Shown: one piece after another, positions 12,028-64,000 of the stretch
Layout: each line of letters opens with the position of its first letter
How positions within the stretch are numbered: the first letter of the stretch is position 1
NCBI RefSeq assembly: GCF_036971445.1
Contig: NC_091470.1
Span: 187,736,001 to 187,800,000, forward strand
Length of the DNA stretch: 64,000 bases
Direction of reading: 5' to 3'
Source of the DNA: Narcine bancroftii
Lineage: Eukaryota
The notes under the pieces: generated by a model
The model's database searches: none
Seen by the model: the letters and a program-made list of their open reading frames with translations, nothing else
What the model was told of the DNA's origin: nothing
Made by a program: the position numbers and the translations under genes

Positions 12028-12069
12028 GCCCGAGTCCGGGTCCGGATGCGCCGACTCCGGAGCGGCTGC

Positions 12070-12235: not shown

Positions 12236-12289
12236 CGGATCTAACTCATTGTCAAGATCACACGCTCCACCCCCCAACCCCGGACTCTC

Positions 12290-18786: not shown

Positions 18787-19264
18787 CTGCAGAAGGATAG
18801 CAGCTAGTGTAAGTGTGTGAGGGTCTCTGTTCAGAGGGGCGGGCTTTCTCAGGGTGGGTTGGGAGCTGTAGTTTGACATACCAGTGGAGCGGTCGGTGGG
18901 CGAAATGATGGGGGTACCCCGGCCTGGGAATATCGCAGATCCCGACTCCAGGGGAAATGGGGACGAGCAAAGTGGGGTGCCAGGGGTGAAGACTCCCGGC
19001 ATGGGGGGGGGGGGGGAAAGGAAGGTCTGCGTGGATCTGGGTCGAACCGGGTGTGCAGGGTGAGTGTGCGGTGGGCTCCAGATGTGCAGGGAGGCTCTGG
19101 GGTAAGCTCCAGTTGTGGAAGGAGGGGCTGGGTGGATTTCAGCTGAGGAAGGAGGGGCTGAGATGATCAGGAGTGGAGAGAGGTAGGGTCTGGGGGTAGG
19201 GGTCTAAACATGAAGGGAGAAGCGGTGAACTGTGGATTTTGGAGGGTCATGTGGGGTCTTCATC

Positions 19265-29759: not shown

Positions 29760-30540
29760 CAGGGGTGTCAAACTCAAATTCACAGAGGGCCAAAATTAAA
29801 AACTTGGACTAAGTTGTGGGCCAAACTAAATATTTATTGAAAATTTTCAACAACATCTGCATGTTTTCTCTTCTTTCAACATATGTAATGTTAAACTTTT
29901 TGTTATTAAAATAAATGTTTAATAATAGTTTTGGTTAAACTCTTTCCAGAAGAAGCATTAACAAATGAGAAATAAAATATTCAATAAATAATATTTCTCT
30001 ATACCTTTAAGCTCCTTTTAAATGTATTTTTTTTCACAAGCCAACAAGTCAAAAAAATAACAACTTGCTTCAATGAAAATCCAATCTTTCAACTATGAAC
30101 AGTCCAAAGTTAACCAAAGAAAATATTAATCCAAGCTTAGCTTGCTACACTGTAATTTACTCTGATGCACCTGGGTCTAAACCAGATACTTGGCATCTCT
30201 TAGATGCAAGTTCATCAAACTCTGGGGTCAGAGTTTGCCTCCCACCTGTCTTGAAAATTCCTGTTTTCTGTCTTTCGTTTGGCCATTTTTCGTAAGGGGT
30301 TTATTACATGTGAGTTGGGCGACAGGTCGCAGATACTAATGAAAGTAAAGAGAGGAGGTGGGGGCGATTAGCGGGCTGACGGGCCGGTGCCAATGCATTT
30401 GCAAAGCATTCTGGGATTTGTAGTATTAGCTGTACTGGCGCAGCGGGCCAGCTCTAATACATATTTGATATGATCTTGCGGGCCAAACATAATTATATCA
30501 CGGGCCAAATTTGGCCGCGGGCCTGAGTTTGACATGTGTG
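29760..30540. mobile_element. hAT-Charlie-type non-autonomous DNA transposon
   Basis: TIRs CAGGGGTGTCAAACTCA and TGAGTTTGACATGTGTG; perfect 8-bp TSD GTCTAGAG at 29752-29759 and 30541-30548. Confidence 0.88.
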
Positions 30541-40878: not shown

Positions 40879-43800
40879 TTTTTAAATTTTTTTTATTTTT
40901 CACACCATAAACCACATTAACCATGATACATACTTTTTCCTTTTCAAATATATACAGTGCCATTTTCTCCCCCAACCTCCCATCCCACTCTCCCAACCTC
41001 CCCCCACCCGTCCATTTAAAGTACAAAATCTAGGATACATTAAACCAGTCAAACAATGTTGTCATTCAATAAAAATAAACAAGAAATTCCACTGAGTCAA
41101 TTCTTTTCATTTCCTTCTCCTTTCGTAAATTTAGGTAGTGAATGTCCCCGGTAGGTTTTCTCTATTGTGTTTCATGTAAGGCTCCCATATTTGTTCAAAT
41201 ATTTCAATATTATTTCTTAAACTATATGTTTTTTTTTCTAATGGAATACATTTATTCATTTCTATATACCATTGTTGTATTTTCAAATTATCTTCCAATT
41301 TCCAGGTTGACATAATACATTTTTTTGCTACGGCTAGAGCTATCTTAACAAATCTTTTTTGTGCACCATCCAAATCAATTCCAAATTCTTTGTTTTTTAT
41401 GTTGCTTAGGAGGAAGATCTCTGGATTCTTTGGTATATTGTTTTCTGTAATTTTATTTAATATTTGGTTTAGATCTTCCCAAAATTTTTCTATTTTCTCA
41501 CATGTCCAGATTGCATGAATTGTTGTTCTCATTTCTTTTTTACATCGAAAACATCTATCAGATACTGTTGGGTCCCATTTATTTAACTTTTGAGGTGTAA
41601 TGTATAGCCTGTGTATCCAGTTATATTGTATCATACGTAACCTCGTATTTATTGTATTTCTCATCGTTCCAGAACATAACTTCTCCCATGTTTCCTTTTT
41701 TATCTTTATATTTAAATCTTGTTCCCATTTTTGTTTAGATTTACCATTTGTTTCCTCATTCTCCTTTTCTTGCAGTTTAATATACATATTTGTTATAAAT
41801 CTTTTGATTATCATTGTATCTGTAATCACATATTCAAAGTTACTTCCCTCTGGTAAACTCAAACTGCTTCCTAATTTGTCCTTCAAGTAGGATCTCAATT
41901 GGTAATATGCCAGCACTGTATCTTGAGTTATATTGTATTTATCTTTCATTTGTTCAAAGGATAATAATCTATTTCCTGAAAAACAATTTTCTATTCTTTT
42001 GATCCCTTTTTTCTCCCATTCTCTAAAGGAAAGGTTATCTATTGTAAAAGGGAGTAACTTATTTTGCATCAATATTAGTTTTGGTAATTGATAATTTGTT
42101 TTATTCCTTTCTACATGAATCTTATTCCAAATATTGAGGAGATGATGTAATACTGGAGAAGTTCTATGTTGTACCAATTTTTCATCCCATTTATATAATA
42201 TGTGTTCAGGTATCTTTTCCCCTATTTTATCTAATTCTAATCTAGTCCAATCTGGCTTTTCCCTTGTTTGATAAAAATCTGATAGGTATCTTAATTGTGC
42301 GGCTCTATAATAATTTTTAAAGTTTGGCAGTTGTAAGCCTCCTTGTTTATATCATTCTGTTAATTTATCTAGTGCTATCCTCGGTTTCCCCCCTTTCCAT
42401 AAAAATTTCCTTATTATTTTCTTTAACTCCTTGAAGAATTTCTCGGGCAAGTGTATTGGCAATGCCTGAAATAGGTATAATAGCCTAGGGAAAATGTTCA
42501 TTTTAATACAGTTTATCCTTCCTATTAGTGTTAATGGTAAATCTTTCCAATGCTCTAAATCGTCCTGTAATTTTTTCATTAGTGGATAATAATTGAGTTT
42601 ATATAGATGGCCGAGATTTTTATTTATTTGTATACCTAGGTATCTTATTGCTTGCATTTGCCATCTGAATGGTGATTCCTTCTTAAATTTTGAGAAATCC
42701 GCATTATTCATTGGCATTGCTTCATTTTTATTTACGTTAATCTTGTAACCCGACACTTCTCCATATTCCTTCAATTTCTTATATAATTATTTTATTGATA
42801 GTTCTGGTTCTGTTAAGTATACTATAACATCATCCGCAAATAAACTGATTTTATATTCCTTGTCTTTTATTTTTATCCCTTTTATATTATTTTCTGTTCT
42901 TATCAATTCTGCTAGTGGTTCTATAGCTAACGCGAACAATAAAGGTGATAGTGGGCATCCCTGCCGTGTTGACCTGCTTAAGTTAAATTGCTTTGATATA
43001 TATCCATTTACTGTCACTTTCGCCAATGGCCCCTTATATAATGCTTTAATCCAATTAATATACTTCTCTGGTAAACTGAATTTTTGCAATACTTTGAATA
43101 AATAATTCCATTCTACTCTGCCAAAGGCCTTCTCTGTGTCTAAAGCAACTGCTACTGTTGGAGCTTTACTCCCTTCTACTGCATGAATTAAGTTAATAAA
43201 TTTACAAATATTGTCTGTTGTGCGTCTTTTTTTAATAAATCCAGTTTGGTCTAGATTTACCATTTTAGGTACATACTCTGCTAATCTGTTTGCTAATAGT
43301 TTAGCTATTATCTTATAATCTGTGTTAAGTAATGATATTGGTCTATATGACGCTGGTGCGAGTGGATCTTTCCCTTGCTTTAGTATTACTGTAATTATTG
43401 CTGTTTTACATGAATCTGGTAAGCTTTGTGTTTTATATCAATCTGGTTGATTACTTCCAGGAGGAGAGGAATTAATAAATCTTTAAATGTTTTATAGAAT
43501 TCTATTGGGAATCCATCTGTCACATTTGTGGCCCGAAATGTGAAGTTAATAAAACATTAAACACAAGTTTTATCAGGTAAACTTCTGAGTGTCTTTATTC
43601 TCCCGTTTCCTTTGTTCTCCTGCTTGTGTTCTTATCTCTCCCTCATACCACGTGACTTCCGGTACATCTCATACATATTCATTATCATGACACCATCCTC
43701 TCCTGGTGTTTTATTATTTGGTAATTTTTTAATTATCTCTTGTATTTCTACTATTTCAAATGGTTCTGTTAATTTATTTTGTTCCACTATTTGTAATTTT

Positions 43801-46800
43801 GGTAGTTCAATTTTAGTTAGAAATTCATCTATTTTCCCTTCTTTCCCTTCGTTTTCAGTTTGGTATAATTGTTCATAGAATTCTCTCAAGTTTTCCTTGA
43901 TCTCCTTTGGATTATATGTGATTTGTATGTCTTTTTTCCTTGATGCCAATACCATTTTCTTAGCTTGTCCTGTCTTAAGCTGCCATGCTAGAATTTTGTG
44001 CGTTTTTTCCCCTAGTTCATAATATTTCTGTTTTGTCTTCATTATATTCTTCTCCACCTTATATGTTTGTAGTGTTTCATATTTTATTTTTTTTATCTGC
44101 CAATTCTCTTCTTTTAGTTGTATCTTCCTTCATTGCTAATTCTTTTTCTATATTTACTATTTCCCTTTCCAACTGCTCTGTTTCATGATTATAGTCCTTC
44201 TTCATCTTGGTTACATAACTTATTATTTGCCTTCTAATGAACGCTTTCATTGCATCCCATAGTATAAACTTATCTTTCACTGATTCCGTATTTATTACAA
44301 AATACATTTTAATTTGTCTTTCAATGAATTCTCTAAAATCCTGCCTTTTGAGTAGCATGGAGTTTAATCTCCATCTTTACATTCTTGGAGGGATGTCCTC
44401 TAACTTTATTGTCAATATTAAGGGTGAATGGTCTGATAATATTCTAGCTTTATATTCTGTTTTTCTTACTCTATCTTGCATACGAGCTGATAACAAAAAT
44501 AGGTCTATTCTTGAGTTTGTTTTATGTCTAGCCGAGTAATATGAATATTCCTTTTCCTTTGGGTGTTGTTTCCTCCATATATCCAAAAGTTGCATTTCTT
44601 CCATCGATTTAATTATAAATTTGGTTACTTTGTTCTTTCTGTTAATTTTTTTCCCAGTTTTGTCCATATTTGAATCCAAATTCAGGTTGAAATCCCCTCC
44701 TATTAATATGTTCCCTTGCATATCTGCTATCTTCAAAAAAATATCTTGCATAAACTTTTGATCTTCTTCGTTAGGTGAATATACATTGAGTAAATTCCAA
44801 AACTCCGAATATATCTGACATTTTATCATTACATATCTCCCTGCTGGATCTATTATTTCCTCTTCTATTTTAATTGGCACATTTTTACTAATTAATATAG
44901 CTACTCCTCTTGCTTTTGAATTATACGACGCTGCTGTTACGTGTCCTACCCAATCTCTCTTTAATTTCTTGTGCTCCAATTCAGTTAAATGTGTTTCTTG
45001 CACAAATGCTATATCAATTTTTTCTTTTTTCAGTAAATTTAGCAGTTTCTTCCTTTTAATTTGGTTATGTATTCCGTTAATATTTAAAATCATATAGTTC
45101 AGCGTAGCCATTTTATACTTTGTTTATCTTCCCTTTCCGTTTCTCCATCATCACCTTTCCTTCTTATCCATTTCTGCTTTCTTGTTTTGAACACTTTATA
45201 AGACAACATTTCTAAAACATCAAACATTTTCCTTATTCTCCTATTTAAAACTTCTTTTATCCCATTCTCCCCTCCCCCTCCTGAGTTGCCCTTTATCCCT
45301 TGTCGGACAACCACATCTCCCCTCTCCATTTGGATTTGCGAATTCACTCGCAAACGTCAGCTGATTTTGCAGTGACCGTAACTCCTCCCCACCCAGCCCC
45401 CCCCAGAAAAGATTTCAATTTTCATATGTAACAAAGGTCACTTTTTTAATTCCCTCCTTATTCCCTCTATTCCATTTCCCTCCCTTATTAATTCTTGTCT
45501 ATACTCTATATATTTTCCTCTAAATACAGATACATTCATGTTTGCACACTATATATATATATATATCTTCATTTACCCCTTTACACACATACATATAGAT
45601 CGTGGTCATTTTTACTCTTATTACATGTCTTCATCTCTCTGCTTGTTTTGTAGTTGTTCTGCAAATTTCCTTGCTTCCTCTGGATCCGAGAATAGTCTGC
45701 TTTGTTGCCCTGGAATAACTATTTTAAGTACCGCTGGGTACCTTAACATAAACTTATATCCTTTTTTCCATAAGATCGTTTTCGCTGTATTGAACTCCTT
45801 CCTCTTCTTCAGGAGTTCAAAACTTATGTCTGGATAGAAAAAAATTTTTTGACCTTTATATTCCAGTGGCTTTTTGTCCTCTCTTACTTTCTTCATTGCT
45901 TTCTCCAATATATTTTCTCTTGTTGTATATCTTAAGAATTTTACTAAAATGGATCTTGGTTTTTGCTGCGGTTGTGGTTTCGGGGCTAAAGTTCTATGTA
46001 CCCTCTCTATTTCCATTTCTTCCTGTAATTCTGGTCTTCCCAGGACCCTGGGGATCTAAACTTTTATAAATTCTCTCATATTCTTGCCTTCTTCATCTTC
46101 CTTAAGGCCCACTATCTTTATATTATTTCTTCTATTATAGTTTTCTATTATATCTATCTTCTGAGCTAACAGCTCCTGTGTCTCTTTAACTTTTTTATTA
46201 GATTCTTCTAATTTCTCTTTTAAGTCTTCTACTTCCATTTCTACAATTGTTTCTCATTTTTCCATATTTTCCACTCTTTTTCCTAACTCTGATATGGCCA
46301 TTTCCATTTTATTCATTTTTTCTTCTGCATTCTTAATTCTTCTTTTTATCTCATTAAATTCTTGTAATTGCCATTCTTTCACTGATTCCATATATTCTTT
46401 AAAAAAAGATACATCCATTTTCTTGCCTTTCTCTTCTTCTTCCATTTCTTTCTGTTCTTCTTCTTCTTCCTCTGGATTGACCATCTATTGTTTTCTTGTT
46501 TTCTTTTTACCCTCTTCTTTCTTGTTGTCGTTATTGTCTGTGTTCTGCACCTGCTGCTGTGCTGCAGGTGTCTCTCTCAGCTGTGGAGATCGACTCCGCA
46601 GCTGTTCCCCCTTCCCGTCAGTGTGTTTTTTTTTCATGCGCGGTTGCGCACTTTTACTCGGCTCTGCGAGCCATTTTTGTAGTCCCGAGCCCGGGACCTC
46701 CACTGACCTGTGGGAGCGGGCTTCTCTCTCCGCGGCGGGCCTCTTTGGACAGGTAAGGCCTTCACCTTCTTCTTCCGACGTCTTTCCTTCTTCTTTTCTT

Positions 46801-47080
46801 CCCGTTGTTTTTGGTTTTTCTTTCTTCGCTGCCATTTTCTCCACACTTTTACTTTCACTTTGTTTTGGTTTTTAAGTTTGTGCCTTTGCTTTTTCTGTAT
46901 CTTTTAGCAGTTTCTTCCTTTTAATTTGGTTATGTATTCCGTTAATATTTAAAGTCATATAGTTCAGCGTAGCCATTTTATACTTTGTTTATCTTCCCTT
47001 TCCGTTTCTCCATCATCACCTTTCCTTCTTATCCATTTCTGCTTTCTACCGGCCACTACTCCATCACGTGACTCCCTCTT
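40879..47080 (-). mobile_element. Full-length L1/Tx1-clade LINE, copy 2, inserted in a MITE
   Basis: ORF1 (MAAKKEKP..., with premature stops), ORF2 MATLNY...QETH...GGDFN...SDH, RQGCPLSP, FADD and CCHC; 13-bp TSD GTAGGAAWTACTT at 40866-40878 and 47081-47093 (one mismatch). Confidence 0.95.
43518..43692. mobile_element. 175-bp solo LTR with 5-bp TSD, inside L1 ORF2
   Basis: TGTCA...TGACA ends; CCATC at 43513-43517 and 43693-43697; the empty site GGGAATCCATCCTCTCC is visible in L1 copy 1 near 5510. Confidence 0.88.
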
Positions 47081-47775: not shown

Positions 47776-48238
47776 CTAAAGATTCATGTAGATCCTCAGA
47801 TCCTTCTCCCATGCTCTCGCCCTCGCGTCCCTCCTGAGCTCCTCCCGCCTGCTGACCGTAGCCGCCTTCTCCGTGCGACGGGCAGCAGTCCTCGGCTGCC
47901 GCACTGCTTCAGAGTCATTGGCCTGGAAGTGAGTGACCTTTGGCTTCGGGTTCCTCTGGAAGCCCAAGCCCTTCTGGTCTCTCTTCAGCACCGTCCCAAC
48001 AGGGAACTTTCTCCCCTTCCCATCTGGGCCGAGGCCTGCCCCCCTGTCCCAACCATCTTTCAGCATGATCTGGAACCCGACGTTGCTTTCGGGAATGAAG
48101 TAATGCGTCGGTGGCGGCAGCTCATCGTTCTTGCTGAGTAAGTGCAGCATTGACCTCTCATGCTGTTCAATGGTATCCTCCAGGTATTCCAGTCTGCACA
48201 GCTGGCAGAACTTCTTGTGTGGAGGCCTCTCTTTGCAG
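47776..48238 (-). CDS. GPANK1: G patch domain and ankyrin repeats 1, last coding exon (CxxC...HxxxxxH finger and G-patch)
   Basis: Acceptor ttctgtgatag; FCQLCRLEYLEDTIEQHERSMLHLLS; G-patch NVGFQIMLKDGWDRGAGLGPDGKGRKFPV...GLGF; ends WEKDLRIYMNL*. Confidence 0.95.
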
Positions 48239-48394
48239 CTATCACAGAATCAGAAGTATTACAAATTAATGTCATGAAATTCATTCTTTTGTGGCAGCAT
48301 CACAGCGCAAACATTTCTATGAACCGCATTACAAATAAGTAAAAAATAGTGCAAGGTAAAAGATAGTGTCTAAGGGTCATTCAGCGGGGAAGAA

Positions 48395-48845
48395 GCTGTC
48401 CTTGTGTCGCTGAGTGCTCAACTTCAGGCTCCTGTACCTTTTCCCTGATGGTAGCAGAGTGAAGAGGGGGTGGGGATCCTTTAAGGATAGAGGCTGCTTT
48501 TTTAAGACACCGCCTCTCGGAGATGTCCTTGATGGAGTGAAGTCTGGTGCCTGTGATGTTGCAGGCCGAGTTAACATCCCTCTGGAGATTTTTCCTGGCC
48601 TGAGCATTGGCACCTCCACACCACAGTGATGTAACCAGCTAGAATGCTCTCCACAGTCCACCTGTAGAAGCCTTCGAGAGTCTTCGGTGGTGTACCGAAT
48701 CTCCTCAGAACTCTTCACAAAGTACAGCTGCTGGCGAGCCTTCTTCACGATTGCATCGGCTTGGAGGCTCCAGGACAGGCCCTTGGAGACGTGGACACCC
48801 AGGAATTTGAAGTTCTTGACTCTCTCCGCTGCTGAGCCCTCAATG
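48395..48845 (-). mobile_element. Rex1/Babar-like LINE 3' fragment in the GPANK1 intron
   Basis: VKNFKFLGVH, KKARQQLYF and HPLFTLLPSGKRYRSL...SFFP motifs. Confidence 0.75.
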
Positions 48846-49832
48846 AGAGAGAGAGAGTAGTTACAGCAGCATCTGTTACAGGAGTCACTGGAGAATACCA
48901 GAGAGCTGTGAACTCGACCAGCGACATCACAGTCACCAGTCTTCACTTCATCGAGGTCATCTACAAGAGGCATAGACCATTGCAATTGCTCTGCGAGGTA
49001 CTGAGGCTGAGCCATCAAGAAGAAAAACATCTGTAACTGCTTTTTGCCAGGAAGAGAAATATCTGATTAATTGCCTGGAAAGGACGTGGTTCCAACGGCT
49101 AGAGACAACGACTTGATGTTCGGCTAACTGCTAAGAATAATGTGCAAGACCAACTACACACTTGTTTGTTATGGTGTACAAATATTTGCCTTGTTACCCT
49201 GGATGCGCACTTGGGTCTGGAATCCTGAACCATTGTTCGGTCTCCTGTGCCCAAATACGACAGCTGTTGCAGAAAATCTGGACTTGGGTGAGCGTGACAG
49301 GTATTGCGGCAGTATAAAAAGGGAACAAAGTTCCTGCTTAACAATGGCTGACCTAATTCAATTCTCCCTATCCCAGGTATCACCCCCCCGCCTGAAAAAA
49401 ATTAAAAGACCCTGCCTCCACCCTCTTCCCTCAGCAATCCCTTACTAATCACAGAGCACCGATGGCAGAGGAAATACTTAAAGTGGGATGTGAGTGGGAA
49501 GAAAAGTTTGAAAACCTCTCTCCTAGAATCTTCCACAAGAGATAACACACCCTCCACATCAAGAGAGGGGTATGCAAGGTTATGGGGTGGGTGTGGGTCA
49601 TTGGGACTAGGTGGTGTTCAGCATGGACTTGGAAAGGCCAAACTGGCTGTAAATGTTATATGGTTACATCTCTCAGGACATTATCAATTTTAATCATTCC
49701 TCAATTAGAACATAAAACATTAAAGCACAGAACAGGCCCTTCGGCCCTCGATGTTGTGCTGACCTATATACAAAAAGTACTAAAGCCTTCCAGCCTTGTA
49801 ACGCTCTATTTTTTCTATGCCCAAGAGACTCT

Positions 49833-50569
49833 TGTGACAGAGTATTTTGAAGTGTTTTGGGAGGAAATGTTAGAGCATACAAACATTTTAAAAACACAGA
49901 ATTTTTGGAGGACTTTTGCAGAGTGCTTTTTGCAAGAGGCAACAAAGTATGGACAGCAGCTTGCCTGGGAGAGCATGTGACCTTTGCAGGCAGAGGAAGA
50001 ACAGTTTTGCTCTCAGAGAGGGAGGGAGTGAAACAGAGAGGAGAGACAGAAATCAGTTCCAGAAACTTTGGAAGGCTGCCTGGCCAAAGGAGGAGATTGG
50101 CAGTGTGAAGGGTGACCTGAAAGAAAGAAGATCATCTGGAGAATCCTGAAGGGGGCAAGTTTCGTCAGTAAGCCTGATTGGAAAGGAATCAGTTGCGGAT
50201 GTCCTGGAAAAGGAATCTCTCTCTCTGAAAACCAGCAAGAACCTTCCTGAGTGGTAACTATATGCCTGTTAAACACCAAAGCCTGGTGAACTTCGTTAAT
50301 GCTAACTTCTGTGCACAGAACAAGAATTGCCTGCAACCAGTGAGATTGGACAGTGATCCAAAGAACTTTTCTCATCTTAAATATACATTACATACACCCG
50401 TGCTTAGTATTAGAGTGGGGGGGGGGGGCGGGGGGATTAAGTAGGTTGGGTAGGTTAAGTAAGTTGATAGTAATAACTTTAATTCTGTTTTCTTGTTCAA
50501 ATATATACCCCTGGGTTGTGGTGCATCTCTATTGCTGCTGGTTTTTGGGGTCCTCTGGTCTCCGTAACA
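49833..50569 (-). mobile_element. Solo LTR (737 bp) with 4-bp TSD, inserted in a CR1 3' end
   Basis: TGTGAC...GTAACA ends; CTCT at 49829-49832 and 50570-50573; CR1 sequence resumes on both sides (49705-49832 and 50570-51110). Confidence 0.88.
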
Positions 50570-51125
50570 CTCTTAAAATCCCCTAATGTTTCAGCCTCCA
50601 CCACCACCACCCCTGGCAAGGCATTCCTGGCACCCACAATCCTCTCCGTTAAAAAAAAAACTTACTCCTGACGTCTCACCTAAATTTTTCTCCACTTTGC
50701 AGAGATGTCCCCTGGTGTTTGCTACTCCTGCCCAGGGGAAAAAAAAAGTGCTGGCTGTCCACCTTATCGATGACTCTCGTAATCTTGTAGACCTCAATTA
50801 AGTCTCCTCTCATCCTTCTTTGCTCCAGAGAGAAAAGTCCTAGCTTTCCTCACCTTGCCTCATAAGACTTATTTTCCAATCCATGCAACATCCTGGTGAA
50901 TCGCCTCTGCCCCCTCTCCACAGCTTCCACATCCTTCCTATAATGAAGTGACCAGAACTGAACACAATACTCTAAAAGTGTGGTCTTACCAGAGATTTCT
51001 AGTTGCAACATGACCTCTCAACTCTTGAACTGTATTCCCCTATTAATGAAGCCTAATATCCCATAGACTTTCTTAACTCTCCTGTCAATTTGCACGGCCA
51101 CCTTGAAGGAAGCAATGATTCATAC

Positions 51126-51685
51126 CTCTGTTCTTCCTCTGGGCAAGTGTGATATTCCTCCAGGACAGCGACAATTTCCCCATGGCCAGCCTGTCGGGCC
51201 AAATCCAGGGCATCCCGACCAGAGGAATCACACACTCCAATCCACGCAGCCCCGAGGCTCAGCAAGTACCTCACCACCTCCAGTTGGCCGCTGCATGCTG
51301 CGCACATGGTAGCAGTCCAGTAGTAACTGTCCCGGAAATTTATGTCGCACACTCCCGTCTCCAGTAACCTCTGGACCATCTTCAGGTCCCCATTCTGAGC
51401 AGATCTCAGCAACACGTGTCCATTTCTCTCCCCTCCTTCTGGGACTTGACGCCTGCTGGGACCCTTCCTCCTTGCCCTCCCGCTCGCAGCCTTGGGTTTA
51501 CAGACTGAACTGGTGCTGGCCTCGCTGCTCGAACCAAGGAGGCTCTCGTAGAAATTCTTTGCCTGCTCGCCATCTAAGCCTCCCTCTCTGGGGCAGGGAA
51601 TGGGGGCTTTCCGCCATTCACCATTTTTCCAGGGGTCAGCGTCCTCGACTGCACGAGTAAAACTGATTAGATGCCCGTAGCTCAT
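51126..51685 (-). CDS. GPANK1: G patch domain and ankyrin repeats 1, first coding exon (ankyrin repeats)
   Basis: MSYGHLISFTRA..DPWKNG resembles the mammalian N-terminus; LLRSAQNGDL and INFRDSYYWTATMCAACSGQLEVVRYLL; donor AG|GTATGA, phase 2; spliced product 340 aa. Confidence 0.95.
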
Positions 51686-52029
51686 TGCAAACAATGCTCA
51701 GGCACCAACACAATACGAATTCATGGGTTCCTTGCAGCCGTTCCCACACGCCACTCCAGAGATGCCCGTCACAGAATTAAAAGGATCACTAACATCGTTG
51801 GAGTTCAGGTCCCATGGCAGCCAGTCCTACTGCTCTCCAAAGGAACGTTGCCAAACACCTGGGCTTCACTCCCATGGAATATTACCCGCTGCCAGTAGTC
51901 CTGACGCTCTCTGAAGTCTCTGGATGGTAAAACAAGGCCAATTACAAGTCTGATGTGAGAACACCACACATCTGCCCTGGTCCCCTCTGCCCCCTCATGG
52001 AACAAGGACAGGATTTTCCTTGTCCTCAC

Positions 52030-52545
52030 CCACCACCACACCAGCCTCCGCATCCAACATATCCTCTTCTGCCACCTACTATGTTATACACCTCTAGACA
52101 GGTCTTCCCCTCTCTGCATTCTGCAGGGAGTGCTCCCTTTGTGACTCTCTTGTCCACTCCTCCCTCCCCTTGGCACCTACTCCTGTGACCACAGATGCTC
52201 CACCTGTGCCCACACCACCATTCAGAGCTCCCAAACAGTCCTTCCAAATGAAGCAATATTTCACTTGTGAATCTGCAGGGGTTGTCTACTGCTTCTGGTG
52301 GCCCCACTGTGGTCTCCTCTATGTCGGAGAGACTTTTCGCAGACTGGGAGATGGCTTCGTTGGGCACCTCGGCTCCATCCGATGCAATAGCATGGATCTC
52401 CCAGTGGCCACTCATTTCAATTCCCCATCCCATTCCCTTGGTGACATGGTCTCATGCACTGCCAGATTAAGGCCACCAGCAAATTGGAGGAACAACACCT
52501 CACCTTCCTCCTGGGCACCCTCCAACCAGATAGCATTAATAAATG
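52030..52545 (+). mobile_element. Penelope-like element fragment (GIY-YIG endonuclease region)
   Basis: FTCESAGVVYC...CGLLYVGETFRRLG...HL..IR...PVATHFN. Confidence 0.8.
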
Positions 52546-53399
52546 TTTTAAATTTATACATCTAGATATAGAGCACAGTACCGAAAACCCACGCTGACGC
52601 AGAATGTACAAACTCCTTAAAGACAGCGCAGGGTTCGAACCCCAGTTCCGACCACAGGCGCTGTATCAGCGTTGCCTCCTCCGGTTTCCATTAAACCCCC
52701 ACCTCTTCTTCTCCATCCCCTTCCCCCACCTCTTCTTCCCCGTCCGCTTGTTCCCATCACTTTTCACCCCCCTCTTCTTCCCCGTCACCTTTTCCCCCTC
52801 TCCTTCCCCGTCATCTTCCCCCTCTTCTTCCCTGTCACCTTCCCCCCCTCTTCTTCCCCGTCACCCCCATTCCCCTTTCCCCTCTGTCTCTTTTCATAGA
52901 GCCAAAATCAATTCTCACCTCTCCGCTCATCCTATCCAATGAACCCGCACGGATTCCAGCTCCAGTTCCAGGGCGCCCACCAGGATCTCAGGAACTTGTG
53001 CTGCATTGAATAACACCATCTAGGCACCCTCCTCCCCTTCTTCCCCCAGCTCCCTCTCTCTCCTTTCAAAGAGCCAAAATCAATTCTCTTCTATCCAATG
53101 AACGCATTTAGTTGGTCTGGCCTCTTCCTCGGCCAGACTGAGCTTTGTTATGCCGCTTATTCCTCGAGGAAGGGCTCAGGCTACATCCTTAAGTCCTATG
53201 GACCCTGCGAGATACCTGCTGAGTTCTTGCAGGACCCCAACACCTTGCAGTCTTTCGTGCTTCTCCAGAGTGGCCAGTCACAGGATTAAAAGGAGGCTCA
53301 GAGACTCTGGGTCTCGGGTCCCTCAGGTCTCCATAGGGTCGTGGCCAGAGGCCTGGGGCCCCACGCCCATTACACGCAGCTCCTGCCGCTCTCAGCCTC

Positions 53400-53693
53400 G
53401 CTGGTACAACAGGCGCCAATAACGTGGTCAGAGGAGCTGGGGGAGCTTCGCTCGGACTGGGGAGGATCGACACGATGAGGGTCGTCCGGTTAAACCCAAC
53501 AACTGACAGCGAGAGGCACAGCCCAGCCTGGCGTTGGAAGCGAGAGAGGGGGCGCAGGGATGCTGGGAGTTGTAGTTTCGCCGGCGGAGCGGCCGACGTC
53601 ATTGGACGAGAGGCGGCCCCGACCGCTCAGCATTGGTTGACTTTCGAGGTGAAAGGTCGCTCGCCGGGCTTCTCCCCTCCCCCGGATGTGGCT
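53400..53693. promoter_or_regulatory. CpG-rich bidirectional promoter shared by GPANK1 and VPS52
   Basis: ZNF143 SBS motif CTGGGAGTTGTAGTT (53563-53577), CRE-like GACGTCA, ATTGG boxes at 53601 and 53632; divergent genes on either side. Confidence 0.72.
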
Positions 53694-53708
53694 ATGATGG
53701 CGGCGGAG
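53694..53708 (+). CDS. VPS52: VPS52 (GARP/EARP subunit), exon 1
   Basis: ATG ATG GCG GCG GAG|GTAAGA; phase 0 fits exon 2; lies in the CpG-rich promoter region. Confidence 0.72.
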
Positions 53709-53749
53709 GTAAGAGGGGCTGGAGTAGGGAAGGGTCGTGGGAGGGGGAT

Positions 53750-54051
53750 NNNNNNNNNNNNNNNNNNNNNNNNNNNNNNNNNNNNNNNNNNNNNNNNNNN
53801 NNNNNNNNNNNNNNNNNNNNNNNNNNNNNNNNNNNNNNNNNNNNNNNNNNNNNNNNNNNNNNNNNNNNNNNNNNNNNNNNNNNNNNNNNNNNNNNNNNNN
53901 NNNNNNNNNNNNNNNNNNNNNNNNNNNNNNNNNNNNNNNNNNNNNNNNNNNNNNNNNNNNNNNNNNNNNNNNNNNNNNNNNNNNNNNNNNNNNNNNNNNN
54001 NNNNNNNNNNNNNNNNNNNNNNNNNNNNNNNNNNNNNNNNNNNNNNNNNNN
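53750..54051. other. Assembly gap (N run)
   Basis: Run of n characters. Confidence 1.
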
Positions 54052-54600
54052 AAAGGGGGATGAGGTAGGGAGAGGAATGGTCGTGGGAGGGGGATGAGGC
54101 AGAGGAGGAAGGAGGGTCGGGGAGGGTGCGGGATGAAGGAGAGGCGGGATAGGGAGAGGGCTATGGGAGGGGGATGAGGTAGGGAGGAGGAGGAGGAATG
54201 GTCATGGGAGGGGATGAGGGAGAGGAGGAGGGAGGGTCGGGGAGGGGGCGGGATGAGGGAGAGGAGGAGGGAGGGTCGGGGAGGGGGCGGGATGAGGGAG
54301 AGAAGGAGGGAGGGTCGTGGGAGGGGGCGGGATAGGGAGTGGAGGGAGGGCTCTGGGAGGGGGATGAGGTAGGGAGAGGAGGAGGAAGAGGTATGGTCGT
54401 GGGAGGGGATGAAGGAGAGGAGGATGGAGGGGAGGGGGCGGGATGAGGGATGAGGGAGGGTCGTGGGAGGGGGCGGGATAGGGAGAGGAGGGAGAGTGGG
54501 CCTTGGGAGGGGGGATGAGGGAAGATGAGGAGGAGGGAGGGCTATGGGAAAGATGACGAGGAAGGGCCCCTGGGAGGGAGGATAAGGAGAATGAGGAGGG
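54052..54600. repeat. GA-rich minisatellite flanking the gap, in VPS52 intron 1
   Basis: Repeated GGGATGAGGGAGAGGAGGAGGGAGGGTCGGGGAGGGGGC variants. Confidence 0.85.
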
Positions 54601-55564
54601 AGCACCTCCCCGCGGGAAGGGCAATAGGGAGGGGCGATGGGGAGGGAGCGTCAGTACCAATGCAAATTGGGCCACATAGTATAGAGGAAATTAAATCTTT
54701 GGGGATGGATAAACCTTGTGGGTCTGGGTTTGACCTCGCACTAAAGGGGGCAGTCGATGGCGGGCTTACCACTATCTCGAGAGAAATCTTTAAGAAAAAA
54801 CATGCATAGAACTTGAAAATCTACAGCACAGTACAGGCCCTTTGTCCCACTGTGTTGTGCTGACTTAATAACCTACTCTAACAACTGCCTGACTTTTCTC
54901 AGTTCCAATGTACTTATTTAATACTCTCTTAAAACATACCTGCCTCCACCATCTTTACCGGTAGTACATTTCGTGCACCCACCCCTCTGTGTGAAGAAGG
55001 TGCCTTTTGCATCCCTCCTCTGTACTTGCTTCCAAGCACGTTAAAATTATGTCCCCTCATGTTAGCCATTTCAGCATTGGGAAGTAAAGCCACTGGCCGT
55101 ACACATGATCAATGTCTCTCATCATCTTATACAGCTCTATCAGGTCACCCCTCATCCTCCATCACTCAACCGATCCTTATAAGGCATGCTTGTGAATCTC
55201 TAATCTGCAATGAGATGACTACAACTATACAATATTCGAAGTGGGGTCCAACCAAGCTCTTGTATTATCTCACTACTCCTGAACTTGATCCCACGGTTAA
55301 TCAGAGGGATTGTAATAATACAAAAAATGTAACATTACATGGTATACTTCAACTTTTGTCTGCTGTAGGGCAAACAAAAGAATCTTCAGGGGCATTGCCA
55401 GGTGCCCCCAATAAAAGAACGAGAAGCAAAAGAGAGTTGCATCAGAGACTCAGAGTGCATCGAGTCCTGTCCAATCCATCGGCAACCCGAGCCTCAGATC
55501 CAAAACCTCTGATACCATCAGGAGTCCTTGAGCACCTGAGGCCCCCACTTGATCCCCAGTTCTT

Positions 55565-56345
55565 TTTTTAAGAAACTTTATATAACAAAATACAAATATA
55601 TAAAAAAACCAACATCCTTACAGTGGACCATTATTAAAATACACAATAGTCCCCTATTACCCTTCCCCCTCCCCCCTAACTAAAATCCCCCCCATACCTC
55701 CTAAATATGGAGCCTGATACATAAATCAATTATTTACATGCAGTGGAGTGTGCCATATCCATAAACTACTTAAAGTATATACAAATCTACACATTTTAAA
55801 TATGGAGTCCACATTTTAGTTAAAAAAATTATGTAAATTACATGTGATCTTTTCTAAATAAATGCAAGATTTCCACTCATTATGGCATCGTTGAATATTC
55901 AACTCTATATCATTTCTCCATGTAACGGCAATGCACTTACTAGTAGCTGCCAGAACCAGACGAATCAATGCTATTTGAAAATTATCCAATTTTAGACCCA
56001 CCGTTCAATTTGTCATATATCCCAATAAAAAAAAGTAATGGGCCAAGTGTTAATTCAATTTTAAATAAATGCTCCAAAAACTCCATAATTTTCTTTCAAA
56101 GAAGTTTCACTTTATCACAAGTCCAAATTGAATGTAAAAATGTACCCGTCTTCTCTCCATAATGAAAACAAATCTGATGAGCTTAAACCATATCTTTTCA
56201 ATTTCTCTGGACTTAAATACATCTGGTGTAGAAAATTATAAAACCTCACATTAATTTACTTAGTTACACTGTTTTCACACAACTTCATCCATTCCTCCTG
56301 AGATATAGGATAATCTAAATCCTTCTCCGGTTTACTCTGTTTTAA
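55565..56345 (-). mobile_element. Old L1-like 3' fragment
   Basis: RLVLAATSKCIAVTWR...LEKIT, homologous to 26844-27104. Confidence 0.7.
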
Positions 56346-56778
56346 GTATGCCAGGTTTACTCATCTTCCTGATCTCCAGTTCTGATACTTGGTTCCCATG
56401 AGCCAGACTCCAGCATCCCGCAGCCCGTGTGAGTGCTCCACCTACTAAGCAACCCCCCTCCCCCCCGCTGGCCCGCTGCTGCTCTCACCTTCCTGCAGGG
56501 CAATCTCCCAGTTCTCGACGAAGGTCGGCACACCTCACGCCTTCTTAACAAACGCTATCAACCAGCTTTGAGTGTCGGGTGGACACGGGCCCCAAGATCT
56601 CTCAGTTTGTCCACGCTGCTCAAGGCCCTCCCCTTAACACTGGGTTTTGCTTACACATTTGACCTATGGAAATGAGCCACTTCACATTTTTCTGAATTTC
56701 TGCGGGAGGTTGCGATTTGTGAGCCAATGAGTTGTTGCTGGAGTATGTACAATGACCCTGGTGTTTTCTCTTGTGTAG

Positions 56779-56866
56779 GGGGAGAGGAATGAAGCAGGAG
56801 GTAGCGAGCTGGTCCTGGGTGAACTGGACATAACCTCAGATGAGTTTATCCTCGATGAAGTAGACA
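56779..56866 (+). CDS. VPS52: VPS52, exon 2
   Basis: Acceptor ttttctcttgtgtag, donor GTAAGT; GERNEAGGSELVLGELDITSDEFILDEVD matches vertebrate VPS52 LGELDITSDEFILDEVD. Confidence 0.96.
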
Positions 56867-58127
56867 GTAAGTACCATTTCTCAAGCCTAACACATTGAGT
56901 CGGTGGTGAAGAAGGCAGATGCAGTGCTGACATTCATTTCAAGAGGAATAGACTATAAGAGCAGGGATGTGATCTTGAGGCTTTGATAAGGCACTGGTGA
57001 GCTCTCACGTGGAGTACTGTGAGCAGTTTTGACCTGCTCTTTTATGAAAGGATGTTGGAGAGGTTTCAGATAATGTTCACACAGATGGTTCTGGGAATGA
57101 AAGGGTTATCATGAGAGGAGCGTTTGACAGTTCTTGTTGGAATTTTGGAGATTGGGGGTGGGCAGAGTAGATACAAAAAGGTTGTTTCCCACGCAATCTA
57201 AGACGATGGCACAACTTCAGGATTCAACTTCAGTGCTTAAAACAGAGGAATTTCTTAAGCCAGAGGGTGGTGAATGTGTGGAATTTGTTGCCATGGGCGG
57301 TTGTGGAGGCCGGGTCGTCGGGTGTATTTAATGCAGAGATTGATAGGTTTTTAATTAGCCAGGGCATCAAAGGTTATGGGGAGAAGGCTGGGCAGTGGGT
57401 GGTTAAATGGCGGGGCTGAATAGTCTATTTCTGCTCCTTTGTCTTGCTGGCTAACTGGTTCTCTATTGATAAGGTAACTTTTTTTTTAAAAAGTAAAGGT
57501 GTTTGTAGAATCTGGTGGTCATTAGTTGTGACATTGAATTATTAGCCCCTTTCAACCTGGGCAGCCCTCCTGGGACCCAGGTGCGTTTACTGGGGCAGCA
57601 CCTTTCCAATCTCAGGGGGATTGACCCGTTAAATCGCCAACCTGGCGATTTAAGGAGGATCCCGCCCCCGCGACGATGCGCTACGCACTCACCGGAAGTA
57701 CTGTCGGATGCTAGCCGCCTGATGACGCACGCACGCAAGCGCTGGCGTTACCGGAATAAGCAGGTCAGCCATTTTCCTGTTCAAATTGCCCGTGGACGAG
57801 ACCTAGTTAAGTTTAACTGAGTTCCCTGACGACCTCTGAGGTAGGTCAGGGACCCGGTTGGATTTTGATGGGATTGACCGGATCAGACTCTTTGTAACTG
57901 CAGCGTAACGGGGGCGCTAACTGGGCAACTTGCCCAGTTAACCCCATTTTACACGGCAATTTGAAATAGCCTATTGACTTTCTACTTCCAATGTGCAGGT
58001 GTATCCATGTCTTCGTATGTTTTTATTTAAGCACGTTGGTTGATGCTGTCAGTAAGTCCAGAAATAATAATGATTTCTTTTCAATTTGTTTTTGTACTGC
58101 TGCTGCCATCTAAACCATAGTGCAACC

Positions 58128-58403
58128 ACCGTAAATATGCGTGTATAATGTAACCCGCCCTATTTTTGAGGGGAAAAAAGAGAGAAAAATTTTATCTGTA
58201 TATAATACAACCCCCTCCCCTCGACCCCCCGATTCATGCTGCCGCCTTCTTCCCCTTCGCCCACCCGATTTGCACTGCCGTCTCTCTCCCCACCTCGCCC
58301 GTCCAATTTGTACTGCTGTAAATATGTGTGTATAATGCGACCCCCTACTTTGATCTTGAATTTTGGTACAATATTTTTCGCATTATACATGCACATTTAC
58401 GGT
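58128..58403. mobile_element. Tc1/mariner-pogo-type MITE
   Basis: TIRs ACCGTAAATATGCGTGTATAATG and CATTATACATGCACATTTACGGT. Confidence 0.7.
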
Positions 58404-59787
58404 AATCTCTGTTGTATTTTAGCTTGGAACTCTCCACTGGAGGAACTCAGTGAGTTGATGTATTGAGAAAGGCATCAGATTTGGTGGGTTTACAGAGAGA
58501 TGAGTCTGGACGCAAGGGTTTGCAATCACAAGTTGTTTTTTATTATCACACAACAATTTATAGGAGGGTGATTGGAAATGTTATGGGCATAAAACGCCTG
58601 CACAATTTATAAAGGAGCATGGGAAAATGCTACACAGTACACAATTTATAATACCGAGATGAAGAAAAACTGTTTTTCCTGGAGAGTAGTGAATCGGTGG
58701 AATTCTCTGCCCGGGGATGCAGCTGTGGTTGCTTCATTAAACATACTTAAGGTTCAGTTAGATAGATTTTTACATAAAAAAAGGAATTGAAGGATATGGG
58801 GAAAAGGCAGGTAGGTGGAGTTGAGTCAATGATCAAATCAGCCACGATCTTACTGAATGGCAGAGCAAGCTTGACAGGCCGGATGGCTGACTTCTGCTCC
58901 TGTTTGTTATGTTCTTACGTACACACAGGCAGTGGACATTCACAAAATCCCTACACTGTAGTAGGGGGGTAACATACATCCTTCCCAGACCCCTGATCGT
59001 CAGGAGGCAGCCTTGGTACAAACGGTGCTCCCAGGGGTAACACACACCCTTCTTGGACCCCCAGTCATTGGGAGGCAGCCCTGATACAAATGGTACCCAC
59101 AGGGGTATACCCACACTCTCGGACCCCTGATTGTCGGGAGGTGTGGCTCTGCTGCGAGTATCGACCTATAGCAACTTAAACTATAGCGATACTACGGCTC
59201 AGCTTCAGTGCCATGCACACCTTACCCGCAACTCTGCCAAGCGACATCCACAGTCGCAACCATGGCATGGAGTGGTGTCTGGGGCTATCACCACAAGCAG
59301 AGAGGGAGAGCAAAGTGTTCTATCCTGGTGCTAAATACAGGGCTCTAGCCAATAGTGACGCTGGCTGATTTGAATTAGCCAATGGCAAGGCGTGCACAAA
59401 TTAGTGGCCGGAGCCCAACCTTGATTGACAGGTGATGCGACTTCTGAATATATTCCAGACAGGGAGGGGACATGTGACCACCCGCAATACACACATTCCA
59501 GACAGGCAGTGGGGGGGAGCCACCTTTCCTCCACACACAACAGTTGAGCAACATAAAGTGGGAAGAAAAAGAAGTGTCTATGTTGTGGGTTGTAACCATT
59601 CATCAAGCAGTTCCCCCAGCAGATTGCGTTTTTTACTCCAGATTCCAAAATCTCTTGAGCATCTGGAATTTGTTGCCTCAGACAGCTGTAGTATCCAACT
59701 CATTGGGTATACGTAAAGCAGAGGTTGATATGCTCTTGATCAGTAAGGGCGTCAAAAGTTGTAGGAGAAAAGGGTTGAAAGGAAAAA

Positions 59788-60261
59788 TACCGTATATATG
59801 CGTCTAATAGTTGAGACCATATAAAAGTCAAACCCCTATTTTTTGCCCAAATGTATGATAGTTTCCATAAATTGCGTGTAAAAGTTGACTTCACCCAAAT
59901 TTTGGCCCTGGCCACCCTCCCACCTAAGCTCCTGATGCCCTGAATGCGGACACTCGCTAAGACCCCAGCCGCCTGAGCTCCCAATGCCCCGACTGCTGTC
60001 TCTTGTCCTGGCCCTGGCCACCCGTCCATCTGAGCTCCCAACACCCCGACCGGGAATCCTCGCCTTGGTTGTCCGCCCACTGGAACTCCCAATGCCACGA
60101 TCATGGACTTGCCACCCAGTCCTGGCCACCTGCCTATCTAAGCTCCCGACCGCAGGTACTTAACCACGGTCAAAAGTTGTATGTGTGTAATAGTCGACCC
60201 CATAAATGTTACCCTAAAAAGTAGTCCCCAAAACTAGACTATTACATGAGTATTTACAGTA
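59788..60261. mobile_element. Related TACCGTA-ended MITE with internal short tandem units
   Basis: Imperfect TIRs TACCGTATATATGCGTCTAATAGT and ACTATTACATGAGTATTTACAGTA. Confidence 0.6.
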
Positions 60262-60388
60262 CGTTAGCCATTTGAATGGCAGAGTAGACTGGATGGGCTG
60301 AAATTCTGCTCCAAAATATTCTGGATATCTCCAGTATTTTTAGCTTTTCTGAATGCATCTCCTAAGGTTCTTTCTTTTTTTTTGGCAG

Positions 60389-60441
60389 CACACATACAAG
60401 CCAACCTGGAGGATGAACTTGTAAAGGAAGCATTAAAGACA
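60389..60441 (+). CDS. VPS52: VPS52, exon 3 (the gene continues beyond the window)
   Basis: Acceptor ttttttggcag, donor GTAAGT; (T)HIQANLEDELVKEALKT matches vertebrate VPS52. Confidence 0.96.
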
Positions 60442-61349: not shown

Positions 61350-62665
61350 AGAAAGAAGTGGCCCATGAGAGCCTGACAATATATTCTCTCAGATGTTGAA
61401 GGAGGCGAATGTGAAAATTGCAGGGGCTCTTTTAAAAATATTTTAAATAGCCATTGATGAGATGCTGGAGGATCAGAGGGTAGCTATTGTTTAAAAAAGG
61501 CTCCAAAAGTAACCCTAGAAATTATACATGGTGAGCCTGACGTCAAATTATTGGAAGGTGTTCTAAGAGATGGGATATACAATTATTTGGATCGCCAGGG
61601 ACTGACTAGGATAGTCAGTGTAACTTTGTGCTTGGTAGGTCATGTTTAACCAACCCTTTAAAGTTTTATGAGGAGTTTACCAGCAAAATTGATGAAGGAA
61701 AGGCTATGGATGTTGTCTACGTGGACTTTAGTAAGCCGTTTGACAAGGTCAAGCGTCAGGAAGGTTCAGATGCCCGGTATTCATGGTGAGGTAGTAAAGT
61801 GGATTTGACATTGGTTATAGGGGAAAAGCCAGAGAGTGGTAGTGGATGATGCTTCTCTAACTGGAGGTCTGTGGCTAGGGATCGGTGTTGGGACCATTGT
61901 TGTTTGTCATTTATATCAGTGATCTGGGTGATGATGTGGTAAATTGGATCAGCAAGTTTGCAGATGACACAAAGATTGGAGACATTATGGACAGTAAAGA
62001 AGGTTTCAAAGCTTGCAGAGGGATCTGGACCAGCTGGAAAAATGGGCTGCAAAATGGCAGATGGAATTTAATGCAGATAAGTGTGAGGTGTTGCATTTTG
62101 GAAGGACAAACCAAAAAAGAACAGAGGGATCTGGAAATATAGATATGTAAATCCCTGAAAGTGGTGTCATAGGTAAATAGGGTTGTAAAGAGAGCTTTTG
62201 GCATATTGGCCTTCAAAATCAAAGTATCGAGTGTTGGATGTTCTGGTAAAATTATACAAGATGTTCGTGAAGCCAAATTTAAAGTATTGTGTGCAGTTTT
62301 GGTCACGTAACTACAGGAAAGATATCACTAAGATTGAAAGAGTGCAGAAAAGATTTACTGGGATGTTGGCCAGACTTCAGGAACTGAGTTACAGGGAAAG
62401 GCTAGTACTTTATTCCCTTGGGCTTAGAAGAATGAGGGGAGATTTGATTGAGGTATTTAAAACTGAGGGGTATAGACAGAGTAAATGTAGAGAGGCTTTT
62501 TCCACTGAGGGTAGGTGTGATATGGGTTAAGGGCGAAAGGGGAAAGGAAAGCTTTAGAGTGAACATTAGGGGGAACTTCTTCACACAGAGAGAGGAGAGA
62601 ACATGGAACGAGCTGCCAGCTGAAGTGGTGAACGCGGGCTCAGTTTTCACTTTTAAGAAAAATTG
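61350..62665 (+). mobile_element. Degenerate CR1 ORF2 fragment
   Basis: VDFSKPFDKV, LGPLLFVIYISDL, KFADDTK, YCVQFWS and RGNFFTQR. Confidence 0.88.
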
Positions 62666-62674
62666 GGGTGGGGG

Positions 62675-64000
62675 GGCTGTCGCATGATGGTGGATCATCA
62701 GGTTGGAGAAACTAGCTCTCCAAAAAAAAATTAAAAAAAAGGAAAAGAAGAAATAATATTTAAAGTAATGGAGAAACACCCTCGATTTGACTCCAAAGAA
62801 AGAAAAAGCTGCTCAAAAGGAAAAACAACAGAGAAACGACCACCACATAAAGGAAGGGAGGGAGGCCTACCTCGAGGATGGATCCGGGACACTAGAAGAA
62901 GGAAGCTGATATAGACTGCTTCGACAAAAAGAGGGAACAGAAGAATCAAACCTCGTCAGAAGAAATGGAACAAGAAGAGGGATTAGAAAGAGCCAGCAGA
63001 TGGAGGAAAGTTAGGAAAGTGTACAGAATTTATATAAGCAAATGATGGGAATGGTAAAGGAAATAAAGCACTTTAGAGCTTTAATGGTAAAATCAGACGT
63101 TGGAACCAAACGTAGAATAAGTAGTGGTGAATATGCAAAAAAAGATTTGAAGAGATGGAAGAGTAAAAGGAACAGAAATTGAAATTAATTCACTGACTGA
63201 ATGTTGTCACTCAGAAGAATCTTGTCAGTCCCAAAAAGAACCATAGAACCTTCTCCTTTCCACAATTTTAGCAGAAGAAATAATATAAAGACTCAAAGAA
63301 GGAGATAGTAATCAGACAATTTCTGCCACGGTGGATCCCAAAGAGTCGTGGAGTTCAAAGAATTTCAGGGTGATATTGAGATAGTACGAGCACATCAAGC
63401 TTTAAGAGCTCGACCAAAACCAGATCAAATGCCGCATCCAGTACTGGTTAAATTCCTTCATTATCAAGTAAGAGAGAAGATTTTGGAACTTGCAGCCAAA
63501 CAAGCAAAGACGAGGACCTTTAGAATATAATGAAAATAAGATCTGTTTCTATCCAGATATGTTTTGAATTGTTGAAGAAAAGAAAGGAATTTAAATCCAA
63601 TTAAAAATGAACTGTAGGAAAAAGGTTACGCTTTTGTTTTAAGATATCCTGCCACACTGAAGATTTTTGTTCCAGGAAGTCAAAACACGTATTTTTGTTG
63701 AACCAAAGAAGGCTAAACAGTATATTGACTCTTAGAAGAGAAGATGAGGGCTGAGCAGCAGGGTGCAATTTGAAGGACATTTTCAACAGTGATATTTCTA
63801 ACTGATAAAGGATGATCTGTTTATGTTTAAGGAAATGTAACAACATCTTCGGGAGAGCTGGGAGGGAGGGGCTGACGGCTGCCAATTCATGTGGGCATTT
63901 GTGGCATGTAACATGGAGGGGAATAATGTTGTTAACAACATTAGTAGGGTTTTTTTTAAATCTTTACAGGGTTTCCTTTCTTTTTCTTATGTTCTTTACA
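62675..64000 (+). mobile_element. Degenerate L1-like 5' region/ORF1
   Basis: IEIVRAHQAL..PKP...VLVKFLHYQVREKILE and FYPD, homologous to ORF1 of the full-length copies. Confidence 0.7.

Follow-up and report, generated by a model that had tools for sequence, protein, structure and literature searches.

Head-to-head gene pairs that share a two-way promoter have been surveyed in vertebrates by Li et al. 2006 (PMC1487180) and Yang et al. 2008 (PMC2423431), in whose data the commonest spacing class is 100-200 bp and the pairs tend to be CpG-rich, TATA-less, and housekeeping in function. The surveys draw on human, mouse, rat, chicken, Fugu, and zebrafish, with cartilaginous fish absent from their available parts, and loss of such pairs is the rule over evolutionary distances of this order, 83 of 348 human pairs being kept in Fugu (PMC1487180). 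The closest described systems by gene content belong to the major histocompatibility complex (MHC) region: the VPS52-RPS18 pair of bony vertebrates, in which VPS52 faces a housekeeping gene at a distance of 110-535 bp among TAPBP, DAXX, KIFC1, and B3GALT4, and the mammalian class III pair GPANK1 (BAT4)-CSNK2B, in which GPANK1 is transcribed away from a close neighbor (cat, PMC2453318). The present study concerns a 64,000-nucleotide stretch of the genome of the electric ray Narcine bancroftii (NC_091470.1, positions 187,736,001 to 187,800,000; hereafter the window), in which GPANK1 and VPS52 lie head-to-head with each other. This pair resembles the surveyed pairs in composition, gene type, and probable spacing, and both MHC pairs in layout, but the partner of VPS52 is GPANK1 rather than RPS18, which in sawfish and white shark is distant and has a same-strand neighbor, while CSNK2B of sawfish, white shark, and lungfish faces NFKBIL1 rather than GPANK1. 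Unlike the lost pairs of the surveys, the freed genes here have found new partners elsewhere on the same MHC chromosome. Statements taken from the cited papers and supplementary files apply to those parts of them that were available.

GPANK1 occupies the minus strand and VPS52 the plus strand, with their 5' ends facing each other. Their start codons are 2009 bp apart, in keeping with the 2 kb given by the initial annotation, but because GPANK1 has a non-coding first exon the 5' ends themselves are separated by about 160 bp. Read contigs of GPANK1 end at 53524-53537, which is 157-170 bp from the VPS52 ATG; this bounds the spacing if VPS52 exon 1 is right, although contigs cannot show transcription starts. 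Both 5' ends fall within a CpG-rich, TATA-less stretch (53300-53749; GC 0.65, CpG observed/expected 0.79, no TATA[AT]A) whose right edge is cut by an assembly gap, with a GC of 0.64 and CpG observed/expected of 0.90 across 53400-53749 and values of 0.66 and 1.02, again with no TATA word, in the interval 53537-53694. A minus-strand ZNF143/Staf site with its RRACTACAN companion motif (53558-53578) matches the definition of Anno et al. (PMC3082894), whose promoters carry the same RRACTACAN, then CCCR at site positions 3-6 and C at position 12; the published pattern has two matches in the window (53558-53578 and 18854) against 0.00 expected from 100 shuffles. Two CCAAT boxes on the minus strand (53601-53605 and 53632-53636) are predicted NF-Y sites by word match, and a YY1-like word spans the VPS52 start, while CCGGAA, GGGCGG, and the NRF1 word were not found within 53300-53749. 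The single ZNF143/CCAAT island proposed between the genes is thereby borne out, the CpG-rich DNA there holding one full ZNF143 site plus a pair of CCAAT boxes.

Divergent genes, GC- and CpG-rich, TATA-less DNA, and typical motifs are all present, as in bidirectional promoters elsewhere, and GPANK1 and VPS52 likely share one two-way promoter driven by ZNF143 and NF-Y, as judged from its sequence features. The human promoters of Anno et al. are backed by chromatin immunoprecipitation and reporters, whereas the ray site is a sequence match; in the reporter assays, a ZNF143 site on its own gave two-way activity and transcription (PMC3082894). ZNF143 and NF-Y would accordingly be expected to drive polymerase both ways out of the core of about 160 bp.

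The identity of GPANK1, as first annotated, is firm. Its translated coding parts (51685-51126 and 48238-47776, minus strand) are identical to the N. bancroftii protein XP_069775716.1, its architecture is an ankyrin exon followed by a C-terminal G-patch exon (Pfam), and the window protein was placed in the ray clade with support of 99/99 in a 22-row tree. The last coding exon (47776-48238) carries the G-patch (Pfam E 1.7e-12) and the stop codon, its acceptor at 48238 being the one that gives identity with XP_069775716.1. Exon 2 (51126-51919) comprises 234 nt of 5' untranslated region (UTR), the ATG at 51685-51683, and the ankyrin repeats (Pfam Ank), and both of its ends lie in contigs of the probable RNA runs X5, X6, and X7. 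The non-coding first exon (52919-53537, minus strand, with a second donor at 53216 and contig ends at 53524-53537) is defined by splice joints in these runs: 51919-52919 was found in three of three and 51919-53216 in two of three, and neither in the DNA run X1. That X5-X7 are RNA is a guess, backed by GT-AG joints missing from X1, and reads were placed on 51000-53749 only. The 5' UTR is long (52919-53537 plus 51686-51919, minus strand), at 853 or 556 nt depending on the donor, with 11 or 6 upstream ATGs, and the longer version of the first exon coincides in part with high-copy repeat bins (52840-52931 and 53024-53115; read depth, X1).

VPS52 is represented by its first three exons, which have canonical splice ends, remain in frame, and have compatible phases (0, 0, 1). 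The coding part of exon 1 (53694-53708, plus strand) consists of five codons with a phase-0 GTAAGA donor and is the sole ATG..GT[AG]AG phase-0 candidate, at a reach of 150 nt, within 52901-56700. Exon 2 (56779-56866, plus strand; AG/GT) matches white shark and chimaera VPS52 at 90% by tblastn, and exon 3 (60389-60441, plus strand; AG/GT) agrees with named VPS52 proteins at 17 of 17 residues. Later exons, among them those for the Vps52 coiled-coil and C-terminal domains, lie outside the window. Across exons 2 and 3, tblastn segments against named shark and chimaera VPS52 range from 79 to 90%, with about 90% over the conserved half of exon 2; when exon 2 alone was used as a query, which is too short for the purpose, there was no PDB match and only two unrelated long repeat proteins appeared among cluster representatives. 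The conserved N-terminal region and the exon borders expected of a VPS52 orthologue are thus both present, and the second gene identity of the initial annotation stands as well. A skate VPS52 begins with a similar four-residue piece ahead of the exon 2 sequence, and ray N-termini agree with exon 1 in length and phase; the exon 1 to exon 2 splice (53708-56779) is a prediction from these sequences. As previously annotated, exon 1 is to the left of the gap of 302 Ns (53750-54051), on the same side as GPANK1. The gap is enclosed by a G-rich tandem array in VPS52 intron 1 (53715-54581), with repeat units on both sides, and the final 12-17 bases to the left of the gap recur, in the whole window, only in the array to its right.

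The pair recurs in other cartilaginous fishes, according to the RefSeq gene tables that supplement Verissimo et al. 2023 (PMC10751288). White shark gpank1 (minus) ends at 113,282,070 and vps52 (plus) starts at 113,282,270, 200 bp apart, and sawfish vps52 (minus) ends at 867,768 and gpank1 (plus) starts at 867,849, 81 bp apart. Since the arrangement is found in white shark, sawfish, and this ray, the pair is genuine and dates back at least to the divergence of sharks and rays, which supports GPANK1-VPS52 as the ancestral arrangement for sharks plus rays. In both groups, VPS52 lies among the extended class II genes TAPBP, DAXX, KIFC1, and B3GALT4 (PMC10751288). Among 14 cartilaginous fishes with NCBI records of both proteins, drawn from 15 of the 39 VPS52 cluster members listed, 13 have GPANK1 and VPS52 on records of equal length, and in six (Mustelus, S. 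torazame, Mobula hypostoma, Heptranchias, Cetorhinus, and Leucoraja) the accession numbers are at most 3 apart, three of them on contigs of 131-264 kb. S. torazame has consecutive locus tags for the two genes on a 23,151-bp scaffold. Skates of the genera Rhinoraja, Amblyraja, and Leucoraja have multiple GPANK1-like copies, and Rhinoraja has multiple short VPS52 models on the same chromosome, which suggests that in skates the pair was duplicated as one block.

Bony vertebrates have a different partner for VPS52. VPS52 and RPS18 are divergent in reedfish (311 bp) and lungfish (143 bp; PMC10751288 supplement), in zebrafish (535 bp) and human (110 bp; PMC8423624 supplement), and in cat, where the genes appear under the old names ARE1 (VPS52) and KE3 (RPS18; PMC2453318). 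GPANK1-VPS52 is thus found in white shark and sawfish, and VPS52-RPS18 in all five bony vertebrates with coordinates seen, none of which has GPANK1-VPS52. The human position of VPS52 was described correctly by the initial annotation, VPS52 being head-to-head with RPS18 and 1.6 Mb from CSNK2B (PMC8423624 supplement). In the bowfin table, rps18 and vps52 are separated by 8 rows, with orientation not visible. GPANK1 is not in the bowfin MHC table and is unnamed in the reedfish chr1 and lungfish chr9 tables, its three occurrences in the whole file being all elasmobranch (PMC10751288), although the gene itself is present in bowfin and lungfish. The available axolotl supplement has no match to five gene names, nor does the main text of the newt paper. 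An unverified sturgeon model has GPANK1 fused to a Spb1/FTSJ3-type C-terminal domain, a weak hint of GPANK1 in another neighborhood, and a bichir model has VPS52 fused with an olfactomedin domain; the latter agrees with the reedfish vps52 neighbor, so fused gene models can report neighbors.

Outside jawed vertebrates, a GPANK1 record was found for lamprey, with no lamprey VPS52 among the records obtained. A metagenome scan with a GPANK1 alignment returned 143 relatives, of which 79 loci were kept and the top 29 searched, with upstream frames for 18; with three VPS52 proteins as queries, these 29 loci gave no VPS52 match at E 0.1, and since most contigs are short the scan does not polarize the history. 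Five non-vertebrate GPANK1-like loci (L009, L016, and L020-L022) have same-strand upstream neighbors, which by eye we take to resemble FRG1 or PSMD7.

How the pair came about can be read in several ways. Next to no credence attaches to an assembly artefact, in which a wrong scaffold join at the gap would mean that 53694-53708 is not VPS52 exon 1: the 302-N gap does sit in VPS52 intron 1, with reads placed only up to 53749, but an identical repeat unit lies on both sides of it and nowhere else in the window, independent assemblies yield the same pair, and exon 1 agrees with ray VPS52 N-termini. The recurrence of the pair in the white shark and sawfish tables argues in particular against a misjoin, and together with the repeat array that continues across the gap it speaks for a sound join. 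Two separate compact promoters standing back to back, with the genes as neighbors lacking common control elements, would suit the position of the ZNF143 site, roughly 20 bp away from where GPANK1 RNA ends, and of both CCAAT boxes, which are closer to VPS52; this is nonetheless quite unlikely, as the whole interval measures 157-170 bp, and the gene models of two other species are separated by 81-200 bp, which leaves scant room for independent promoters, and the GPANK1-VPS52 spacing is maintained across sharks and rays. A single ZNF143/NF-Y core firing both ways, with a break beside the VPS52 promoter having switched the promoter's outer partner around the time that cartilaginous and bony vertebrates diverged, is the reading in which we have good confidence. 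Such a break would have placed a new gene on the other side of the VPS52 promoter, and the proposed partner changes would need no shared function of the GPANK1 and VPS52 proteins.

The pair had been ascribed either to an ancestral arrangement or to a swap of partners, and the first of these stands for sharks plus rays. A reciprocal swap, in which GPANK1-CSNK2B and VPS52-RPS18 became GPANK1-VPS52 and CSNK2B-RPS18 in one exchange, is highly improbable: no supporting point was found, and the CSNK2B-RPS18 pair that it predicts did not materialize when both genes were located. CSNK2B and RPS18 are 10.4 Mb apart in white shark, 6.9 Mb in sawfish, and 13.3 Mb in catshark (PMC10751288 supplement), and each has another neighbor, so that for these three species, all three of the elasmobranch tables, the swap is refuted. 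In sawfish and white shark, 10.7-12.2 Mb separate RPS18 from VPS52, and the upstream neighbor of RPS18 is on the same strand (sawfish pdxp at 3 kb; white shark at 622 bp; PMC10751288). CSNK2B faces NFKBIL1 in sawfish at 5 bp (NC_067438.1, 4,657,068/4,657,073), is head-to-head with it in white shark with overlapping 5' ends (NC_054485.1, 111.49 Mb), and forms consecutive divergent rows with it in lungfish, 73 kb apart (NC_056743.1, 656.6 Mb; PMC10751288). In cat, CSNK2B faces BAT4 (GPANK1) and NFKBIL1 faces ATP6V1G2 (PMC2453318). Because elasmobranchs and lungfish have NFKBIL1-CSNK2B in common, the simplest view is that this pair is ancestral, and the mammalian GPANK1-CSNK2B is then likely derived and the newer pair. 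Human presumably has the same GPANK1-CSNK2B and NFKBIL1-ATP6V1G2 layout as cat. Both CSNK2B partners so far, NFKBIL1 and GPANK1, are ankyrin-repeat proteins.

These arrangements suggest that partner changes among gene pairs of the MHC region were probably linked as a chain, and were not one simple exchange. NFKBIL1-CSNK2B would be ancestral for jawed vertebrates, and GPANK1-CSNK2B would have arisen later on the line to mammals. If RPS18 took over from GPANK1 at VPS52 on the stem of the bony vertebrates, GPANK1 would have been set free; it is then absent from the MHC lists of reedfish, bowfin, and lungfish, and in mammals it docks on CSNK2B. Such moves would be cheap, since with a non-coding first exon a new promoter alters no codon. 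We lean slightly toward GPANK1-VPS52 as older than VPS52-RPS18, because the bony-fish lists give GPANK1 no settled position when VPS52 is paired with RPS18. The opposite history, with VPS52-RPS18 ancestral in jawed vertebrates and GPANK1 displacing RPS18 in the cartilaginous-fish line, is a serious if somewhat less probable contender: VPS52-RPS18 occurs in every one of the five bony vertebrates with coordinates, elasmobranch RPS18 has no divergent partner in either of two tables, as would be expected of an orphan, and GPANK1 looks like a newcomer in that VPS52 keeps its place among extended class II genes in sharks and rays. Against it, GPANK1 would be left with no known ancestral partner, CSNK2B being taken by NFKBIL1. 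The presence of GPANK1 and VPS52 on one chimaera scaffold fits either history.

Several points weigh against the reading of an ancient shared promoter whose partner changed. Two sister lineages cannot fix the direction of change. As annotated, lungfish NFKBIL1 and CSNK2B stand too far apart for one promoter to serve both, the gene facing CSNK2B in reedfish is psmb10, 18 kb away, and the catshark table has no entry under nfkbil1; the S. canicula table names no vps52 and has an unnamed divergent locus 39.5 kb upstream of gpank1 (PMC10751288). The chimaera evidence consists of GPANK1 and VPS52 being on the same 4,116,489-bp scaffold of Callorhinchus milii (XP_042200798/XP_007883202), and the holocephalan sheet of the PMC10751288 supplement has neither gpank1 nor vps52. 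For Amblyraja, the VPS52 that was listed and the three GPANK1-like proteins belong to records that differ in length. Accession nearness carries no orientation and is missing from 8 of the 14 species, including white shark, where the accessions are 1088 apart yet the genes adjacent, so that accession distance was dropped as negative evidence. Within the window, 53576-53749 had no RNA cover in three of three probable RNA runs, the VPS52 start and first splice being unseen there, which speaks neither for nor against exon 1, and the VPS52 cluster members listed, 15 of 39, included none from N. bancroftii.

A broader and rather doubtful extension would treat such promoters of the MHC as reusable sockets. 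Ancestral GPANK1-VPS52 and NFKBIL1-CSNK2B would have been followed, toward mammals, by RPS18 joining VPS52, GPANK1 joining CSNK2B, and NFKBIL1 joining ATP6V1G2. Equally tentatively, this would amount to three exchanges among six genes, with every break falling no more than a few hundred bases from an active promoter and one gene keeping the ZNF143/NF-Y core each time. If true, human MHC pairs regarded as "conserved" would be of recent origin, and sockets of this kind would flag breakpoints of MHC history that can be dated.

The mixed gene order of the elasmobranch MHC has already been published (Verissimo et al. 2023, PMC10751288). The available main text of that paper, figures aside, does not mention GPANK1, VPS52, CSNK2B, RPS18, head-to-head, or bidirectional, and the GPANK1-VPS52 adjacency is in its supplement, unremarked. 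We found no paper on the GPANK1-VPS52 pair or the partner chain, although supplements and subscription papers may hold one, and the passages available from PMC1309616, PMC12619710, PMC12863176, and PMC10845735 have nothing on either. The pair is of an ordinary bidirectional kind with an apparently unreported history.

The remainder of the window holds fewer identifiable features. At about 12030-11961 on the minus strand, a signal-peptide-like first exon with a phase-1 donor lies in the window's strongest CpG island (11750-12300), and by sawfish gene order could be a candidate tapasin-like gene. A terminal exon at 17579-17490 (minus strand) ends in what we take to be a SOUL/heme-binding motif; this candidate fits the sawfish order, with no match in Pfam or PDB. 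ZNF143-like sites at 18854-18874 and 30411-30424 (both minus strand), the second with a CCAAT nearby, are possible promoters. Large LINE-type (long interspersed nuclear element) remnants were recognized by eye at about 1000-9400, 41100-46900, and 61700-62700, with endonuclease, reverse transcriptase, and ORF1-like frames, and include two near-full copies on the minus strand. In the left part of the window, none of 30 frames compared with Pfam was above the cut-off, and motif scans gave nothing firm.

The effect of these findings on immunology is small, the genes involved being all housekeeping or non-classical MHC residents. Their interest lies in how such pairs are interpreted, as head-to-head pairs are often read as held together for shared function. 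Cartilaginous and bony vertebrates alike have VPS52 head-to-head with a partner, yet the partner differs between them; this suggests that what was kept is the two-way promoter and not the pairing. The junctions, four or five adjacencies in all, are sharp, scoreable characters for ordering the MHC rearrangements of sharks, bony fish, and tetrapods.

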